From Myxococcota bacterium (GTDB lineage Bacteria > Myxococcota_A > UBA9160 > UBA6930), in contig OZ245002.1 in assembly GCA_965223415.1 (NCBI GenBank), forward strand, positions 1,760,001 through 1,824,000: a stretch of DNA of 64,000 bases, in the 5' to 3' direction. Position numbers: made by a program. This document shows, piece by piece, positions 33,001 to 48,000 of this stretch (positions are counted from its first letter, which is position 1; every line of letters begins with the position of its first letter).

Positions 33001-36000
33001 CATCGGAGGTGCCGCCGGGGCGACTCCGATCTACGACGAAGGCACGGATGGGGACATTTCCACGGACGACACCCAGCCGACGATCATCACGGCGGTGGCT
33101 GGCCTCAACGAGATCGTCCTGACCTTCGGCCCCGGCGATACCCAGAACTTCTTCGAGATCGACCTCGGCGGGAGCCTGGCGCTCACCCAGGTGGTGCTGA
33201 ACGGCTTCTCGACGTCGCCGGCGAATCTCGCCAGCCTGCTCGGCAACTGCTCGCCCGGTGCCGGGTGCACCGCCTTCAATGCCCAGGCGAGTGAGCGGCT
33301 CGAGACGGCCGCCGTGGGCTCGGACCTGTTGCCGGGGCTGCTCGGGGACCTCGGGCCGAACGAGACCCTGACGAACCGCTGGGTGACTGCCGAGAGTCAG
33401 GCCTCCACGACCGTGAGCCTGATCTTCGTGACCACCACGGTGCCCGAACCCTCCCTGCTCGGACTCGGCCTGGTGGGGCTAGCCGCCCTCACTTTCAAAC
33501 GTCGTCTCGCCGATTCATGAAGGTGGGGTGAAACCGGCCCCCAGGCGTGCGCGGGGTCACGCCCTAAACGGGTTGGATCTGCTCCACTGTGACCCATGGT
33601 GGAGAGAGGTTCGACGGACGCGGTCCACGATCGCGTCCAGGCGCACTTCGGTGAGGTGATCGACGAGGCCCGGCGCATGGAACGCCGGATCGCGGGCTGG
33701 GTCAGCCGGGAAGAGCTGGTTTCGTGGGGGGGCATGGGCCTGCTGGAGGCGGCCCAGCGCTTTCGGCCGGACTTCGGTGTTCCCTTCACCCAGTACGCCC
33801 GATACCGGGTTCGCGGCGCCATGCTCGATGGCCTCCGCGAGGTGAACGGCGTGCCCCAGGGGTTGTGGCGGGCGCGCTCCCGGGAGGATGAGGCGGCCTC
33901 CGCCACCCTGGACGCCCACGCCGAACGGGTGGCCGGTGCGCGCACCAGCGGCTGGCTGGCGGAGACCGGCTCCGACGAGTGGGGCCAGCCCATCGCGGTG
34001 GACCGGGAGCCGGATCCGGAGGCCATGGCCAGCGACCGGCAGCTCGCCGGGGTGGTCGAGGAGGCGCTGGACGCCCTTCCCGAGGCCGAGGCCACGGTCA
34101 TCCGCCGCCACGTCCTGGCGGACGAGCCCCTGGCGGAGGTCGCCCTGGAGCTCGGCGTGAGCAACCCGCGAGCCCACCAGATCCGCGCCCGCGCCCTCCG
34201 CCGCCTGGCCCCGCGCCTGCGCGGCCTCGCCCACCCCGAGCGCGCCGCCGGGTGAGACAAGGGGACGTTCCTTTCTGTCTCACGGTCGCCGTGAGACAGA
34301 AAGGAACGTCCCCTTGTCTCACCTAGATGTCGCGGGTGCGGTTCTGCCAGTAGCGGTCGCGCAGGCGGCGGACGTAGAGCTTGCCGGCGGCGGTGCGCGG
34401 CAGCTCCGGCTCGAAGTCCACGGAGCGGGGCACCTTGTAGGCGGCGAGGTGCTCCCGGGCGAAGGCGCGCAGCTCCTCAGCCAGCTCCGCGCTCGGCGCA
34501 TGGCCGGGCGCCAGCTCGACGGCGGCCTTCACCTGCTCGCCCCACTCGTCGTCGGGAATCCCGAAGACACCCACATCGGCCACCGCCGGATGCTCCTGGA
34601 GCACCTGCTCGATCTCGAGGGGATAGATGTTCACGCCCCCGGAGATGATCATGTTGGAGCGGCGGTCCGACAGGTAGACCCAGCCGTCGGCGTCGACCCG
34701 CCCCACGTCGCCGAGGGTGTGCGTCATTGGGTCGAGAAAGGCACCAGCGGTCTTCTCGGGATCGCCGTGGTAGGAGAAGAACCACTCGGTGGTGGCGTGG
34801 CGTGCGTAGAGGTCGCCGTCCTCGCCCGGGGCGAGGCGCTCCCCGTCGGGGCCCACCGCGAACACCTCGTACTGGGGAAGGGCGCGACCCACGGTGCCCG
34901 GGTGCGCACCCCAGGCCTCCGCCTCGACGAGGGTGGTGACGCCACCCTCGGTCCCGCCCCAGTACTCGAGCAGGATCGGCCCCCACCAGTCGAGCATGCG
35001 CTGCTTCACGGCCACCGAGACCGGCGCGGCGCCGTGGAGGACGGTGTGCAGGGACGGCGCGGAGAACGCGGCGCGCTCCTCCTCCGGCAGGCGCAGCAGC
35101 CGCACGAACATAGTCGGGACGAGATGCGTGTGGTGCACCTCCTCCTCGCGCAGCACCCGCAGCGCCTCACGCTCGTCCCAGCGCGGCAGCAGGCGGACCG
35201 GCGCGCCGGCGGCCTGGTCGTAGACGGCAAACATGAGCGGCGCCGCGTGGTAGAGCGGCCCGGTGACGAGATGAGGCCCGCTGCCGTCGCAGGCGATCGA
35301 CCGCGCATAGGCCTCCTGCCCTTCGAGGGCCTGGCGAAGGCTCGGCGCCCGCCGGCGCATCACGCCCTTGGGCCGGCCGGTCGTGCCGCTGGTGTAGATC
35401 ATGTTGCCGCCCGCGGGACCGCCCAGCGCCATCGGCTCGTCGGAGGTGCCAGCGAGCAGCCCGTCGAGCTCGGCGCCCACGACGACGACCTGCGCTGCGC
35501 CGCCGGCCCGAGCCGCCGCCTCGTGCTCCGGGTCCGCGAACACCACCCGGGCTCCGGAGTCCGCCACCACGTAGGCGATCTCCTCCGGGGTGAGGTGCCA
35601 GTTGATGGGCGTCATCCACACCCCGGCGTGGATGGCGGCCAGGATGCCCTCGACCCCTTCGACCCGGTTCCCGATGAGCAGCGCCGCGTGGTCGTCGGGG
35701 GCCAGGCCGAGCTCGCCCCGGAGGAGCCGGGCCCAGCGGCTCACCCGGTCGAGGAGCTCTGCCCAGCCCCGCCGGCGGGTGCCGTCGGAGAGGGCGAGGC
35801 CCTCGGGATCGGTGCGCGCCCGGTCGTGGAGCATCCGGGGAGGTTACAGAAACGATACGTCTCGTTATGATATTACCCTCCTCTTCCCCGGCGGGAGTGG
35901 TGCGCCCGAGATCCGCGGCGCAGACTCCCGGCCCACCCCGGGAGGCCCATGGACAAGCGCACCACCGAGGCGGAGGCCGTTGCCGAGCTTCGCTCTGGCA

Positions 36001-45000: not shown

Positions 45001-48000
45001 TCTTCGTCGCCACCGACGTGCGCGACGTCGACGCCATCGGCGCCGTCGTCGAGGCGACCCGGGCCCGCTTCGGCCGCCTCGACGCCCTCGTGAACAACGC
45101 CGGCGGCGCCCCCTACGCCGACGCGGCCGACGCCTCCCCCCGCTTCCACGAGAAGATCCTCGCCCTCAACCTCACCGCCCCGCTCCACTTCGCCCAGAAG
45201 GCCAACGCGGTGATGCAGGAGCAGGAGGAAGGCGGCTCGATCGTCATGATCACCAGTGTGTCCGGCATGCGCCCCTCGCCGGGCACCGCCGCCTACGGCG
45301 CGGCCAAGGCCGGCCTCATCTCCCTTGCCCAGAGCCTCGCCGTCGAGTGGGCGCCCAGGGTGAGAGTCAACGCCGTCGCCGCCGGCATGGTGCGCACGGA
45401 GCAGGCCCACCTCCACTACGGCGACGAAGCAGGGATCGCCCGGGTCGGCGCGACCGTTCCGCTCGGGCGCCTGGCCCAGCCCGAGGAGATCGGCGACGCC
45501 TGCGTCTACCTGGCCTCCCCGCTCGCCAGCTACGTGACCGGCGCGAACCTGCTGATCCACGGCGGCGGGGAAGCGCCGGCGTTCCTGGACGCGGCGCAGG
45601 ACTGAGGCCGGCGGCCGGTCAGCGCCCCGAATCGATCCAAGCGACGGCTTGTTTGAGCTCGTCGGGCGCCGTTCGCTCCCAGCTCCGCAGGGCCGCGGCC
45701 AGCGACTTCGCCATGATGGAGCGAGCCTCCCCCGACTCGCCGTTCTCGATGGCGCGGATGACCCGCTGGTAGCTGCGGAGGGCCGACCGGCGCTGCTTCT
45801 CCTCCCACGGGGCGCTGGATTCCCCCGACATGCGATGCAGCGCTTCCACGAGGATCGCGAGTACCCGATTGCCCGACGCGGTGGCGATCAGGTTCATGAA
45901 GCGCCGGGCTTCCTCCCGGAAGAGGTCCGGGTCGTGCGCTCCTGCGTGCATCCGGGCGGCGCTCTCGTGGAGGGTCGCGACGTCCTCGCTGCTCGCGTTC
46001 GCAGCGGCCTCCGCCGCCAGGACCGGATAGATCGAGCAACGGACCTCCACGACGGAGCGGAACGAGGCATCGGCGAACTGAAGGTGGAGCGAGAGCACGC
46101 TCGCCAGGTGATCGGCTCCGGGGGTGCTGACGACCGGGCCTCCGCCGAGGCCGGCCTTGATGCGAAGCGCCCCCTGGAGCTCGAGGAACCGCAGGGCCTC
46201 GCGCACCGTGCCGCGCGCCACGCCGAGCTCCTCGACCATCCGGTGCTCGGCGGCGAGCTGCGTGCCGGGGCGAAGGCGCCGGCGCCGGATCTCGTTCACG
46301 AGCTTGCGGGCGATGCGGACGGCCGCGCGTTCGGGAGCTCGTCTTCGACTCATCCTGCCGCGGCCCTTCTCACTAGCGTCCCCTGAACACGGGCTTGCGC
46401 TTCTCGAAGATCCCCCGCACGGCTTCGCGGCCGTCCTCGCTGGTCAGCGCTTCCCTCGCCAGGGAGAGCTCCTCGCGGAGGTGATCCTCGAGGCCAGCCA
46501 GGAGGCCGGCCCGGGTCACCAGGCGCTTGGTCTGTCGGGCCGCGATCGGAGCGACCTCGGCGATCTTGCGGCAGGTCGCGAGGAAGGCCTCCTCGAAGTC
46601 CTCGGCGGCGGCGACCTCGCCGACCAGTCCGAGGGCGAGGGCCGAATCGGCGTCCATCATCTGCGGATCGAGCAGGAATCGCATCGCACGCTCGTGGCCA
46701 ATCGCCTGGGGCAGGGTCCAGGAGAGGCCGCAATCCGGTGAGGTTCCCGCCCGCGCATAGCCGGGGTGGAAACGCGCCTTCGTGCTGGCGACGCGCATGT
46801 CCGCGCACATCGCGAGGGCGAGGCCGGCACCGATCGCGATGCCGTTGATGCCGGCGATGACGGGCTTCTCGCAGTCGACCCGGATGCCCGACACCAGACG
46901 GACCACCTGGTCCTCGGTGCTCGGCCGAGTGCCCCGGGCTTCGCCCGGCGGCCTGCGCTCCTTCAGGTCGGCGCCGGAGCAGAAAGCGTCACCGGCGCCG
47001 GTGATGCCGACCACGCGGACGTCGTCGTCCGCGGCCGCCGCCCGGACGCCCGCGATCAGCGCCTGCACCAGATCGCCCGAGAGCGCGTTCTTCTTGGCGG
47101 GACGGTTCAGGGTCACGACCCGGACACCGTCGGTGGTCTCCTCTCGGAGCACGGGCTCCTGGCTCGCCGTGGAATCGCTCATCTAGGCCGCCTCGCTCAA
47201 TCGGTAGCGAATGGGGAGCTTCTTCAAGCCCACGACGAAGCTCGACGCGATCTGGGCGGGATCGTTGGCGAGCTCCAGGACCTCGACCCGGCGGATCAGC
47301 TCCTGGAGCAGGGCGCGCTGCGACTGACGGGCGAGGTGGGTGCCCAGGCAGAAGTGCTCGCCGATCCCGAACCCCAGGTGCGGGTTCGGATCCCGGTCGA
47401 CCCGGAAGGCGTAGGGATCCTCGAAGACGGTCTCGTCGCGGTTCGCCGAGGCGTAGAAGAGGACGAGGTTCTCCCCCTTGCGGAGCTTCTGTCCCCGGAA
47501 CTCGAGATCCTCCGCCACGACCCGTTTCATGTAGTTGACGGGCGAGGTCCAGCGCACGATCTCCTCCACCGCGCTCGCCACGAGATCGGGGTTCCGCTTG
47601 AGCTTCTCGTACTCGGCCGGGTGCTGGGCCAGGGCATGGATGCCGCCGGCCAGGGCGTTCTTCGTGGTGTCGTGCCCCGCCGTGAAGGTGATCAGGTAGT
47701 AGCCGAGGGTCTCCATCATCCCCATCGGCTCGCCGTCGACCTTCGCGTTGGCGAGCAGGCTCGCCAGGTCGCCCTTCGGATTCGCGCGGCGATCCTCGAT
47801 GATCCCGTTGAAGAGCTGGAAGAACTCCATCGCCAGGGCCCGCACCGCAGCGCTGCGATCCTCGCCCTTGCGCTGCAGGTCGGGATCGTCGGAAGCGAAG
47901 AGCTCGTTGGTGAGCCGGAGCAGCTGGGGCTCCTTCTCGCGCGGCACCCCGAGAATCGTGGAGAGGACGCGCAGTGGGTGGGCGGCGGCGACCTCGTTCG

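Follow-up and report, generated by a model that had tools for sequence, protein, structure and literature searches.

What does a bacterium do with genes for degrading the last two rings of a steroid when the genes that would open the first two appear to be missing? The question is raised by a 64,000-nucleotide stretch of contig OZ245002.1 (positions 1,760,001 to 1,824,000; here called the window) from a Myxococcota bacterium of the order UBA9160, in an uncultured myxobacterial branch. HIP is the hydrindane-propionate that remains after loss of steroid rings A and B, and a cluster of genes for HIP catabolism was reported in the window by a first-pass annotation. That observation of a C/D-ring cluster is confirmed at the level of sequence. 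On balance, we favor the view that the stretch carries an intact, regulated operon, under TetR control, for CoA-dependent breakdown of HIP once rings A and B are gone, with a sterol as the likely ultimate substrate.

Codon-position GC analysis, together with Pfam and NCBIfam scans, places eleven back-to-back genes that fill positions 34323..45605 exactly, with all frames open and GC3 of 0.89-0.96. Ten of these are close-packed on the (+) strand at 35949..45605, while an acyl-CoA ligase gene with AMP-binding (Pfam) domains (34323..35834, (-) strand) diverges from ipdA. On the (+) strand, the CoA_trans alpha and beta genes ipdA (35949..36797) and ipdB (36794..37555) would encode the two subunits of the ring-C (COCHEA-CoA) hydrolase. 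They are followed by ipdC, for a predicted FMN enzyme of the FabK/NMO family (37566..38633; Pfam NMO, 243 bits), and by a gene for an EchA20-type crotonase, the putative ring-D hydrolase (38638..39399; equivalog NF005925, 342 bits, cut-off 260). Next come two acyl-CoA dehydrogenase (ACAD) genes, for an alpha-type subunit resembling FadE31/ScdM1 (39402..40559; Pfam N, M and C domains) and a beta-type subunit resembling FadE32/ScdM2 (40562..41626; N and C domains only, the middle domain being undetected). The start of the beta-type gene is free of overlap, and its stop overlaps the start of the gene for a FadA6-type thiolase (41623..42780; equivalog NF005865, 718 bits, cut-off 591). The run closes with a 300-residue short-chain dehydrogenase (SDR) of the 3-hydroxyacyl-CoA dehydrogenase type (42790..43692; NF005861, 497 bits, cut-off 373), a third ACAD (43693..44826), and a 256-residue SDR (44835..45605; equivalog NF005893, 395 bits, cut-off 255). 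None of the three cluster ACADs passes the IpdE2 model NF050027; it is the top NCBIfam match of the third (204 bits against a cut-off of 450), which is the best IpdE2 candidate and the putative partner of a distal IpdE1. The gene content is as first listed and the order is not, since FadA6 comes after two ACADs and is separated from the third by an SDR. The NCBIfam PRK models presumably correspond to the single M. tuberculosis genes whose names are used here.

IpdA and IpdB match the solved RHA1 and M. tuberculosis enzymes over nearly their full length (PDB search: IpdA, 6co6_A at E 3.4e-104 and 6con_A at 1.9e-101; IpdB, 6co6_B at 2.6e-86 and 6con_B at 7.6e-82), and the next-best match of each, glutaconate CoA-transferase, reaches only 1e-24 and 2e-18. 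In the alignments, Glu101 of IpdA lines up with the Glu that is replaced by Ala in 6coj_A, and Gly53 of IpdB with RHA1 Gly57-beta, described in the available text of PMC5380842 as the position where the CoA-transferase glutamate is lost; both diagnostic residues are kept. Reciprocal best hits were obtained in nine of nine loci tested for IpdA, IpdC, the EchA20-type crotonase (48-54% identity) and the ACAD alpha-type subunit (65% identity to its Undibacterium counterpart), IpdC also pairing at 49% with an ipdAB-linked gene of Rhodococcus. The FadA6-type thiolase does so in 8/9 loci (67-77% identity), and the ACAD beta-type subunit, the 300-residue SDR and the 256-residue SDR in every locus that carries them (six, eight and seven, respectively); the third ACAD pairs with Undibacterium only. 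In Virgisporangium, Micromonospora, Conexibacter and Undibacterium, genes linked to ipdAB pair as reciprocal best hits with eight of the cluster genes.

The cluster ligase was rejected as FadD3, since it scores only 205 bits with the FadD3 model (cut-off 657). Among the related loci compared, its orthologue lies near ipdA only in the closest relative (L005; 83%), and the ligases that adjoin ipdAB in other phyla map instead to the FadD3 of this genome. A short distance away on the (-) strand are genes for Ltp, a thiolase-like lipid-transfer protein (31117..32307; equivalog NF004715, 705 bits, cut-off 424), and its DUF35 partner with zinc ribbon and OB fold (32329..32760; Pfam OB_ChsH2_C and zf-ChsH2). 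In the related genome G101 the HIP cluster itself includes an orthologue of Ltp (71%), flanked by FadA6 and the ACAD pair, and the DUF35 gene adjoins the Ltp gene there as it does here; of 80 related loci, 10 have Ltp no further than 10 kb from ipdA, at 69-93% identity. The pair is part of the HIP cluster in relatives, an association newly noted here, and Ltp is probably an accessory to the HIP module.

Further pathway genes lie outside the window, where the first-pass annotation had put them. An SDR of IpdF type (NF005880, 426 bits, cut-off 336) stands beside an ACAD at contig positions 1832391-1834368, and FadD3 is at 1403548-1405134 (NF005801, 720 bits, cut-off 657). A separate sterol side-chain operon (contig positions 2266294-2274501) includes FadA5 (the 'steroid 3-ketoacyl-CoA thiolase' equivalog NF005889, 589 bits, cut-off 515), an Ltp (NF005892, 605 bits, cut-off 469) and ChsH2 architecture.

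A sigma-70-like promoter for the ipdA operon is predicted at 35843..35871 ((+) strand) by consensus match, with GTTACA at -35, a 17-nucleotide spacer and TATGAT at -10 (one site found, against 0.0 expected from 50 shuffles). Within the spacer lies a predicted operator (35848..35869), a 16-bp palindrome with the core AACGATACGTCTCGTT, which scores 29.5 with the PWM, whereas 20 shuffles of the window reach 12.6 at most. With at most one mismatch, the 14-mer core occurs twice in 5.83 Mb, at the ipdA promoter and at the IpdE1/IpdF locus; about 0.13 occurrences would be expected by our own composition estimate. The palindrome also recurs at four other beta-oxidation-type operons and, as one weaker site (score 19.1), upstream of a TetR gene. 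Fifteen Myxococcota-type loci and G101 keep it upstream of ipdA, and in 63 of the 64 loci of Actinomycetota type or other types it was not found at that position. Its presence in the ipdA promoter spacer, its recurrence and its conservation are new here. The TetR protein, of which a homologue lies near the HIP cluster of G101, was rejected as KstR2, which is not among the 40 PDB matches listed; the best of these is an uncharacterised TetR (6e-26). Its pairing with the palindrome, and its effector, are putative. Such a repressor would control the ipdA operon and would co-control the IpdE1/IpdF locus and several further beta-oxidation-type operons.

We infer every enzyme activity of the pathway, and its substrate, from likeness to characterized systems, the roles being taken from the M. 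tuberculosis and RHA1 pathway in the available text of PMC5380842. FadD3 would make HIP-CoA, and the propionate side chain would be shortened by IpdE1 with the third ACAD, a hydratase, the 300-residue SDR, and a thiolase (FadA6 or the Ltp/DUF35 pair). IpdF and IpdC would then form the enone, the EchA20-type crotonase would open ring D, and IpdAB would open ring C. Thiolytic cleavage of the product would fall to FadA6, and oxidation of the resulting methyl-oxo-octanedioyl-CoA to the ACAD alpha/beta pair.

The same set of families makes up the KstR2 regulon of M. tuberculosis H37Rv and R. jostii RHA1, as far as the available text of Crowe et al. (2017; PMC5380842) describes it: two SDRs, EchA20, IpdA, IpdB, IpdC, FadA6 and three small ACADs in the cluster; FadD3, a FadE30-type ACAD and IpdF elsewhere in the genome; and a candidate repressor of TetR type. 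Unlike that regulon, the regulator here is not KstR2 and the operator is a different palindrome, the Ltp/DUF35 pair is in the cluster of relatives and a non-FadD3 ligase is attached here, and the feeder genes KshAB, KstD and HsaACD are missing from this genome. Comamonas testosteroni TA441 (available text of bioRxiv 10.1101/2021.06.08.447645) has the scd genes ScdL1L2, ScdK, ScdM1M2, ScdF and ScdJ; the likenesses are IpdAB to ScdL1L2, IpdC to ScdK and the FadE31-32-type pair to ScdM1M2, along with two thiolytic enzymes within one pathway, whereas its tes ring A/B genes are in the same mega-cluster. The betaproteobacterial Undibacterium locus (L083) gives reciprocal best hits for nine window genes and, no more than 35 kb from ipdA, carries both KshA (263 bits) and an HsaC-like gene (323 bits). 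Core identities in this scd/Undibacterium comparison (IpdA 56%, IpdB 42%) are lower than those to Actinomycetota (64-69% and 56-65%).

How a sterol nucleus would become HIP is the difficult step. Just two Rieske/KshA_C proteins, those already reported, were found in the genome, scoring 97.6 and 91.6 bits where five Rhodococcus KshAs score 294-312, and no KshA orthologue was found (best 30% identity). HsaC was not found (best 81.5 bits, partial, against 267-403 among the Rhodococcus matches listed; in another comparison, 31% identity over 135 residues only), nor was HsaD (best 60 bits, against 82-239 among the Rhodococcus matches listed; in another comparison, models at 60-73 bits), as had been claimed. 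KstD was likewise not found (best 24-28% identity to the KstD of the related genome G112), and the best HsaA-like protein (349 bits) is under the cut-off of 450. With KstD, KshA, HsaC and HsaD all lacking, the genome is without the known source of HIP. The reported absence of ring A/B genes stands for this genome and genus and fails for the order as a whole, in which 3 of 193 genomes have true KshA and 65 an HsaC/BphC-type dioxygenase. G112 has true KshA, HsaA, an HsaC-like gene and a KstD-like gene; in G101 the cluster genes form a single 16-gene run with FadD3, IpdE1, IpdF and Ltp/DUF35, and true KshA (PDB E 1e-108) and a KstD-like gene lie 23 kb away on the same contig. No oxidosqualene cyclase was found in the genome, and hence no endogenous sterol is expected. 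Because the side-chain operon is present, the ultimate substrate is most likely a sterol, and the organism may either take up HIP-like acids from others or use an unrecognised ring A/B route.

The missing feeder genes would also fit a general funnel for carboxylated alicyclic compounds, in place of a steroid pathway. Its substrates would be hydrindane or cyclohexanone acids that derive from terpenoids, hopanoids or steroids and are present in dissolved organic matter, and upstream ring opening would be by the many luciferase-like monooxygenases (LLMs), P450s and hydrolases. The reported count of 67 Bac_luciferase matches was reproduced; the operons linked to the operator abound in CoA-transferase III, ACAD pairs, MaoC hydratases, LLMs, an alpha/beta hydrolase and DUF3604; a P450 in the window is about as close to P450terp (4e-84) as to the reconstructed CYP125 ancestor (2e-88); and comparable paralogue expansions are proposed for SAR202 in the available text of PMC5395668. 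Four complete Acidimicrobiia chromosomes (those that hold loci L020, L066, L071 and L078) are also 'HIP-only', an observation newly made here: all carry ipdABC, ACAD and SDR genes at 40-72% identity (L020 also EchA20), and no KshA-grade protein was found in them, so that the module may serve non-steroid alicyclic acids. They differ in being without the Myxococcota operator (scores at most 14.6, mostly below 0) and, within 10-kb flanks, without FadA6 or Ltp/DUF35 at comparable identity. Against such a funnel are the dedicated side-chain operon with FadA5, ChsH2 and Ltp2, the FadD3 that passes its equivalog cut-off, the tie in G101 and G112 of the module to KshA, KstD, HsaA and HsaC within the same lineage, and the close match to enzymes for which only steroid-derived substrates are known. 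We regard it as unlikely, though a serious competitor to the steroid reading.

Considerably less probable is an oxygen-independent route of 2,3-seco type that would take the entire sterol down to HIP-CoA, as in Sterolibacterium (Steroidobacter) denitrificans. According to the available text of PMC5380842, HIP genes are common to the aerobic and anaerobic routes, and in S. denitrificans the HIP cluster is apart from fadD3, as here, and is used independently of KshA/HsaC; many CoA-transferase, ACAD and ECH operons under the same predicted operator would also suit such a route. However, a genome search gave no sign of its molybdoenzymes, the only xanthine-oxidase-family member being far from any steroid-type locus, although no sequence search aimed at AtcABC or C25-dehydrogenase homologues was made; FadD3, which the same text suggests may be dispensable in the anaerobic route, is present; and oxygenases (P450s, LLMs, Rieske proteins) are plentiful in the genome.

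The favored HIP operon is also widespread in its order. At E<=1e-30, 165 of the 193 order genomes have IpdA, as do 95 of the 101 that are of good quality, bearing out the claim that it is kept in most of them; the earlier 160/193 is consistent with this, since for seven of the 165 genomes the best E lies between 1e-33 and 1e-70. The genome is a single 5.83-Mb contig of even 67-75% GC, 97% complete with 1.7% contamination, and one contig of even GC excludes mis-binning. A decaying relic or actinobacterial assembly contaminant, to which the highest identities outside the lineage (those to Actinomycetota) might point, is highly improbable and is rejected, given these assembly figures, the intact frames, the kept catalytic residues, the order-wide presence with its own conserved operator, and a separate clade in the IpdAB tree.

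Myxococcota were formerly classed as Deltaproteobacteria, and the claim of a phylum outside the known steroid degraders thus depends on the taxonomy used, although the texts of 2016 and 2018 surveys do not mention Myxococcota. 'Actinobacteria-like', as the modules had been called, holds for similarity and not for recent transfer, since the window sequence falls within its own Myxococcota clade (SH-aLRT 99). One Acidimicrobiales clade joins the Myxococcota sequences in the same tree (SH-aLRT 91, not starred).

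The G+C content is 67-75% across the entire window, and raw lists of open reading frames are therefore crowded with false frames; codon-position GC combined with a suffix-score gene caller yielded one clean tiling. Eleven genes with an intergenic spacing of -4 to +114 bases occupy positions 34323-45605 (whole-contig coordinates are used for genes outside the window). The minus strand carries the gene for an acyl-CoA ligase (34323-35834), the plus strand ten genes in a row (35949-45605). The gene content is identical to that of the first-pass annotation, which had described a cluster for breaking down the two final steroid rings (hydrindane-propionate, HIP), but the gene order is different: the crotonase gene is followed by a first acyl-CoA dehydrogenase (ACAD; 39402-40559), a second ACAD (40562-41626), the FadA6-type thiolase (41623-42780), a short-chain dehydrogenase (SDR), a third ACAD and a second SDR. 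Two of the frames it implied were corrected after translation. A search of sequencing runs turned up none from RNA for 35949-45605.

The cluster genes are ordinary members of known families. The crotonase (EchA20-type) passes equivalog NF005925 with 342 bits (cut-off 260) and the thiolase NF005865 with 718 bits (cut-off 591), while the first SDR passes subfamily NF005861 (497 bits, cut-off 373) and the second equivalog NF005893 (395 bits, cut-off 255). IpdA and IpdB both belong to Pfam CoA_trans, and their genes lie side by side with a 4-base overlap. IpdC is NMO/FabK-like in Pfam and NCBIfam, its orthology being assigned by reciprocal best hits only. None of the three cluster ACADs passes a specific NCBIfam model; the IpdE2 model NF050027 gives 204 and 161 bits on them (cut-off 450). 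The window ligase scores 205 bits on the FadD3 model and, among 80 related ipdA-bearing loci, has an orthologue near ipdA only in its closest relative, L005.

Full-length comparison with solved structures sets the pair encoded by ipdA and ipdB well apart from other CoA-transferases. IpdA matches Rhodococcus RHA1 IpdA (6co6_A) with E 3.4e-104 (351 bits) and the M. tuberculosis protein (6con_A) with 1.9e-101; for IpdB the values are 2.6e-86 (292 bits, 6co6_B) and 7.6e-82 (6con_B). The next solved relative of both is glutaconate CoA-transferase (1e-24 and 90 bits for IpdA, 2e-18 and 70 bits for IpdB). Glu101 of the window IpdA is the sole aligned position at which 6co6_A and 6coj_A differ (Glu to Ala), and we take this alpha-subunit glutamate to be the catalytic one of the 2018 IpdAB structure paper. 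Gly53 of the window IpdB, in a TDG motif, aligns with RHA1 Gly57-beta, the site at which true CoA-transferases require a glutamate (PMC5380842). With both diagnostic positions holding, the pair is by sequence IpdAB, the predicted COCHEA-CoA ring-C hydrolase.

Orthology was assessed against nine ipdAB loci (Virgisporangium, Micromonospora, two Conexibacteraceae, one uncultured Actinomycetota, three Myxococcota MAGs of other classes, and Undibacterium), with reciprocal best hits run against a 5054-gene call of the whole source genome, a single contig of 5,833,097 bases that is 97.3% complete with 1.7% contamination. IpdA, IpdB, IpdC, EchA20 and the first ACAD are reciprocal best hits in all nine loci and FadA6 in eight; where present, the SDRs are so in 8/8 and 7/7 loci and the second ACAD in 6/6. 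The ligase that accompanies ipdAB in the compared loci finds as its counterpart a FadD3 elsewhere in the genome (1403548-1405134; equivalog NF005801, 720 bits, cut-off 657), not the window ligase, and the earlier placement of FadD3 outside the cluster is borne out. So is that of the IpdF-type SDR and a large-subunit-type ACAD at 1832391-1834368 (NF005880, 426 bits, cut-off 336). The ACAD beside IpdF is the IpdE1 candidate, for which there is no dedicated model. A Rhodococcus contig (61% GC) and the contig of G112, a KshA-bearing genome of the same order (51% GC), were treated by longest-ORF calling; the Rhodococcus 100-kb stretch lacks the canonical cholesterol cluster around ipdAB and served only for IpdABC/SDR reciprocal hits and as score control for KshA, HsaC and HsaD.

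A sterol side-chain operon with FadA5, Ltp2, ChsH2 and an ACAD pair had also been proposed, and three of its members pass family cut-offs or match solved structures. The operon (2266294-2274501) runs ACAD, ChsH2, ACAD, a gap, Ltp, thiolase, SDR and an F420-type luciferase-like monooxygenase (LLM). ChsH2 (MaoC plus DUF35) matches 4wnb at 2e-34 and 6ok1_B at 1e-37 and is flanked by the two ACADs; the Ltp2-type Ltp passes NF005892 (605 bits, cut-off 469), and the FadA5-type "steroid 3-ketoacyl-CoA thiolase" passes NF005889 (589 bits, cut-off 515). The uncalled gap of about 442 bases (2269663-2270106) between the second ACAD and Ltp is the presumed place of ChsH1.

With pathway roles taken as established in PMC5380842 and in work on Comamonas (bioRxiv 10.1101/2021.06.08.447645), the following sequence can be proposed. 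HIP would be thioesterified by FadD3, by homology, and its propionate side chain lost in one turn of beta-oxidation, for which IpdE1 with the third ACAD, the 300-aa SDR and a thiolase are candidates. IpdF and IpdC would then produce the enone, the crotonase would open ring D and IpdAB ring C, FadA6 would cleave the product, and the resulting acid would be oxidized by the ACAD pair; the Comamonas ScdM1M2 are described as resembling FadE31 and FadE32, and the Comamonas pathway as having two thiolytic enzymes (bioRxiv 10.1101/2021.06.08.447645). By analogy, our guess is that a conserved Ltp/DUF35 pair might act here as the second thiolytic enzyme. The earlier observation is confirmed and its HIP interpretation supported, with qualifications.

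The genes for opening rings A and B are another matter. KshA, HsaC and HsaD had been reported as missing from the genome, and profile scores below those of the Rhodococcus proteins agree. KshA_C occurs only twice, at 97.6 and 91.6 bits, against 294-312 bits for five Rhodococcus KshAs and 231-242 bits for those of G101, G111 and G112, the order's genomes with true KshA; among solved structures, the better of the two proteins comes nearest to KshA (E 1e-36), over residues 13-178 only. For HsaC, TIGR03213 reaches at best a partial 81.5 bits (positions 70-220), compared with 267-403 in Rhodococcus, and NF045631 has no match at E<=1e-40 in the genome or its genus. For HsaD, TIGR03343 gives at best 60 bits, compared with 82-239 in Rhodococcus, and the two candidates to which NF045632 was applied score 73 and 57 bits. 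KstD too is absent, as judged from profiles and alignments: the best match to the G112 KstD has 24% identity (E 4e-15), and NF009478 gives the FAD-binding protein g02020 only 152 bits (cut-off 789). The best matches to the G112 HsaC and KshA have 31% identity over 135 aa and 30%, respectively. An HsaA-like protein scores 349 bits on NF045629 (cut-off 450) and is 44% identical to the G112 HsaA, which passes with 464 bits. The HsaA-like flavin monooxygenase gene in 911185-913365 adjoins a minus-strand LLM gene. A single molybdoenzyme of the xanthine-oxidase family is encoded in the genome, and its gene is not linked to a steroid-type locus.

Most genomes of the order UBA9160 keep IpdA, as had been claimed: at E<=1e-30 it is found in 165 of the 193 genomes (seven of the 165 with best E between 1e-33 and 1e-70), in 95 of the 101 of good quality and in 61 of 74 genera. 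An even sample of the phylum has it in 109 of 401 genomes at E<=1e-90, with a patchy distribution by family (e.g., 19/23, 6/9, 0/29 and 0/34). KshA-grade proteins (231-242 bits) are present in only three of the 193 order genomes, with relatives at 142-153 bits in 32 more. HsaC/BphC-type dioxygenases, whose scores of 142-338 bits all stay below the cut-off of 450, are found in 65 of the 193; the six genomes of the window's genus have none.

Of the three genomes with KshA, two were looked at closely. A 52-kb contig of G101 carries a single run of FadD3, IpdE1, IpdF, a small ORF, SDR, ACAD, SDR, FadA6, Ltp, DUF35, ACAD, ACAD, EchA20, IpdC, IpdB and IpdA, with 52-79% identity to the proteins of the source genome (FadD3, 761 bits, cut-off 657). 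A TetR homologue lies 2.7 kb from this run, and a true KshA (4qdf_B, E 1.4e-108) with a KstD-like gene lies 23 kb from it. G112 has KshA together with KstD-like (526 bits), HsaA (464 bits, cut-off 450) and HsaC-like (TIGR03213, 324 bits) proteins and two LLMs; an HsaD-grade hydrolase was found in none of G101, G111 and G112. The lineage is therefore able to link the HIP module to 9,10-seco genes and almost never does so. Complete Acidimicrobiia chromosomes (G531-G534, behind loci L020, L066, L071 and L078) also carry ipdAB clusters; none of the four has a KshA-grade protein (none, 127 bits, none and none), and an HsaC-like match (253 bits) occurs in only one, so the "HIP-only" genotype is not confined to Myxococcota. 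In Undibacterium, KshA and HsaC-like genes both lie beside ipdA.

A concatenated IpdA plus IpdB tree (76 rows, quick IQ-TREE, unrooted, SH-aLRT support only) places the window in an 11-row clade of Myxococcota-type MAGs (SH-aLRT 99). This clade joins Polyangia-type sequences and one Acidimicrobiales clade in a 30-row group (SH-aLRT 91, below the star threshold); the remaining Actinomycetota fall in other clades, and Undibacterium with two delta-labelled MAGs lies across the midpoint root. The MAG titles Spirochaetales, Geobacter, Desulfurellales and Binatia in the tree are labels given by the submitters. What emerges from the tree is an old clade specific to the lineage; it names no donor.

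Throughout a whole uncultured Myxococcota order, the last-rings module is a near-universal trait under separate regulation, mostly uncoupled from KshA and HsaC, and it is likewise uncoupled in complete Acidimicrobiia genomes. Surveys keyed on KshA and HsaC have confined 9,10-seco steroid degraders to Actinobacteria and Proteobacteria (PMC4810484, PMC5790920), and surveys based on those markers therefore miss such organisms. That the module sits in a phylum outside the known steroid degraders agrees with the main texts of both, in which neither "Myxococc" nor "Deltaproteobacteria" occurs, while their supplements could list such bins. Full-text literature searches that covered Myxococcota, Myxococcales, myxobacteria, Deltaproteobacteria and UBA9160 turned up no account of steroid catabolism in this lineage, and a word search of papers on UBA9160, whose supplements could again list such bins, returned no steroid terms. 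The group has been renamed Vahlivitia (bioRxiv 10.64898/2026.07.10.737566), and a sterol reductase that a 2026 preprint places in uncultured Myxococcota concerns synthesis, not degradation. This cluster departs from known HIP clusters in its host lineage, in being almost completely uncoupled from the marker genes, in having a separate TetR/operator regulon and in the Ltp/DUF35 addition.

The regulon was recognized through a palindrome, AACGATAC followed by GTATCGTT, that is common to the ipdA and IpdE1 intergenic regions. It was found by eye when the two HIP promoters were compared and then pursued by regular expression and position weight matrix; an automated inverted-repeat search of the ipdA intergenic region returned nothing at its settings. 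With at most one mismatch, the 14-base core has two copies in the genome, exactly at the ipdA and IpdE1 promoters, where about 0.13 are expected by an estimate from base composition. In the window, the palindrome fills the 17-base spacer of the one sigma-70-like promoter match found (-35 at 35843, -10 ending at 35871). A symmetrised matrix was built from four intergenic sites, which themselves score 29.5-35.0; it finds further intergenic sites upstream of an LLM/ACAD-pair operon (21.8) and of a TetR gene at 1851524-1852162 (19.1), against a maximum of 12.6 in 20 shuffles of the window. The operator-linked operons are DUF3604, an unknown ORF and an alpha/beta-hydrolase, divergent from CoA-transferase III, two MaoC-type hydratases, ACAD and CoA-transferase III; an ACAD pair; an LLM divergent from an ACAD pair, an enoyl-CoA hydratase-type gene (ECH), a PQQ dehydrogenase, a second ECH and an ACAD; and TetR, wax-ester synthase/DGAT and carboxylesterase (1848292-1852162, minus strand).

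Within 400 bases upstream of ipdA, 16 of the 80 related loci have a site scoring at least 12, and the other 64 score at most 5.3. Fifteen of the sixteen are Myxococcota-type (L005-L007, L010-L017, L022, L048, L051, L056), and in each of these the ipdA-upstream site is the best of the whole locus; the remaining one, L077, is from Acidimicrobiia (14.6). G101 is outside the matrix set; of all sites on its contig, the two that score highest are found upstream of ipdA (25.2) and in the stretch between FadD3 and IpdE1 (16.8). The TetR at 1851524-1852162 is the candidate repressor for this operator, a pairing that we infer together with any effector. It belongs to no NCBIfam family, the solved structure nearest to it is that of an uncharacterised TetR (6e-26), KstR matches it in the DNA-binding helix region only (33 bits), and KstR2 is absent from its 40 PDB matches. 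In this respect the system differs from the KstR2 regulon, whose repressor and operator were not found; the palindrome here is lineage-specific. The TetR-headed operon may be related to steryl-ester handling; IS21-type transposase genes adjoin it. A GntR/FCD gene at 45619-46299 was set aside as cluster regulator because none of the 80 loci has a homologue near ipdA.

A directly testable question is raised: from which source do aquatic bacteria that lack KshA supply the module with HIP-type CoA esters? HIP-like acids or other steroid fragments made by other organisms may be taken up, and the presence of FadD3 fits a free acid. Non-steroid alicyclic acids, or alicyclic acids of steroid and terpenoid origin in dissolved organic matter, are a further possible source. 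Carboxyl-rich alicyclic molecules are reported to form from steroids (PMC10100752), and the paralogue expansions of this genome resemble those proposed for SAR202 (PMC5395668). The P450 of the window (47183-48445) lies as close to a reconstructed CYP125 ancestor as to P450terp.

Rings A and B may also be opened by an unrecognised route. The genome has 67 luciferase-like genes. We consider it rather improbable, in the extended form of this idea, that the order, and perhaps the "HIP-only" Acidimicrobiia too, derives HIP-type intermediates from sterols or other polycyclic terpenoids without KshA or an extradiol dioxygenase, by genes marked with the lineage-specific TetR/palindrome regulon. The chemistry would be a Baeyer-Villiger-type or hydrolytic ring opening followed by beta-oxidation. 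Candidates are the operator-linked DUF3604/alpha-beta-hydrolase operon with its divergent CoA-transferase III, MaoC pair and ACAD, the LLM/ACAD-pair/PQQ-dehydrogenase operon, and a cassette at 2.67 Mb (2668749-2673433, minus strand) of TetR, Rieske/KshA_C (315 aa), LLM (420 aa), alpha/beta hydrolase (260 aa) and F420-type LLM (318 aa). This cassette is a candidate for non-canonical ring opening and lies divergently to genes for a P450, an ACAD pair and an ECH, with a second DUF3604 nearby. The two DUF3604 proteins have 730 aa (2328579-2330771, minus strand, its divergent promoter bearing the HIP operator at 35.0) and 720 aa (2662884-2665046, plus strand), and both genes adjoin ACAD pair, ECH, CoA-transferase III and MaoC hydratase genes; DUF3604 has no solved relative in the PDB by sequence, and its name was found in just two papers. 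The conserved operator offers a handle to list upstream genes across the 193 genomes. Turnover of endogenous sterols is ruled out because the genome has no oxidosqualene cyclase (best 94 bits, cut-off 851). A 638-aa terpene-cyclase-like ORF at 4881144-4882841 (plus strand), possibly a squalene-hopene cyclase, is a weak match to oxidosqualene cyclase (94 and 45 bits, cut-off 851).

Other genes of the window were noted as well. Positions 48530-53812 (plus strand) encode a fused double CoA-transferase III (814 aa) followed by thiolase-like, DUF35 and amidohydrolase_2 proteins. Upstream, on the minus strand, lie the P450, an ECH and the GntR/FCD regulator; only these three were searched for in the 80 related loci, and none is found near ipdA. 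Two adjacent ArsA-type ATPase genes at 3449-5819 (minus strand) each have an HSP20-like C-terminal domain; as called, they share about 190 bases, so one start is probably mis-set. Positions 8242-11553 encode a thioesterase, a MaoC/FAS1-type double hotdog hydratase and a further acyl-CoA ligase, which is the reciprocal best hit (50% identity) of a Rhodococcus-contig ligase. Scattered CoA-ester genes include an ACAD (17503-18681) and a CoA-transferase III (24382-25653).
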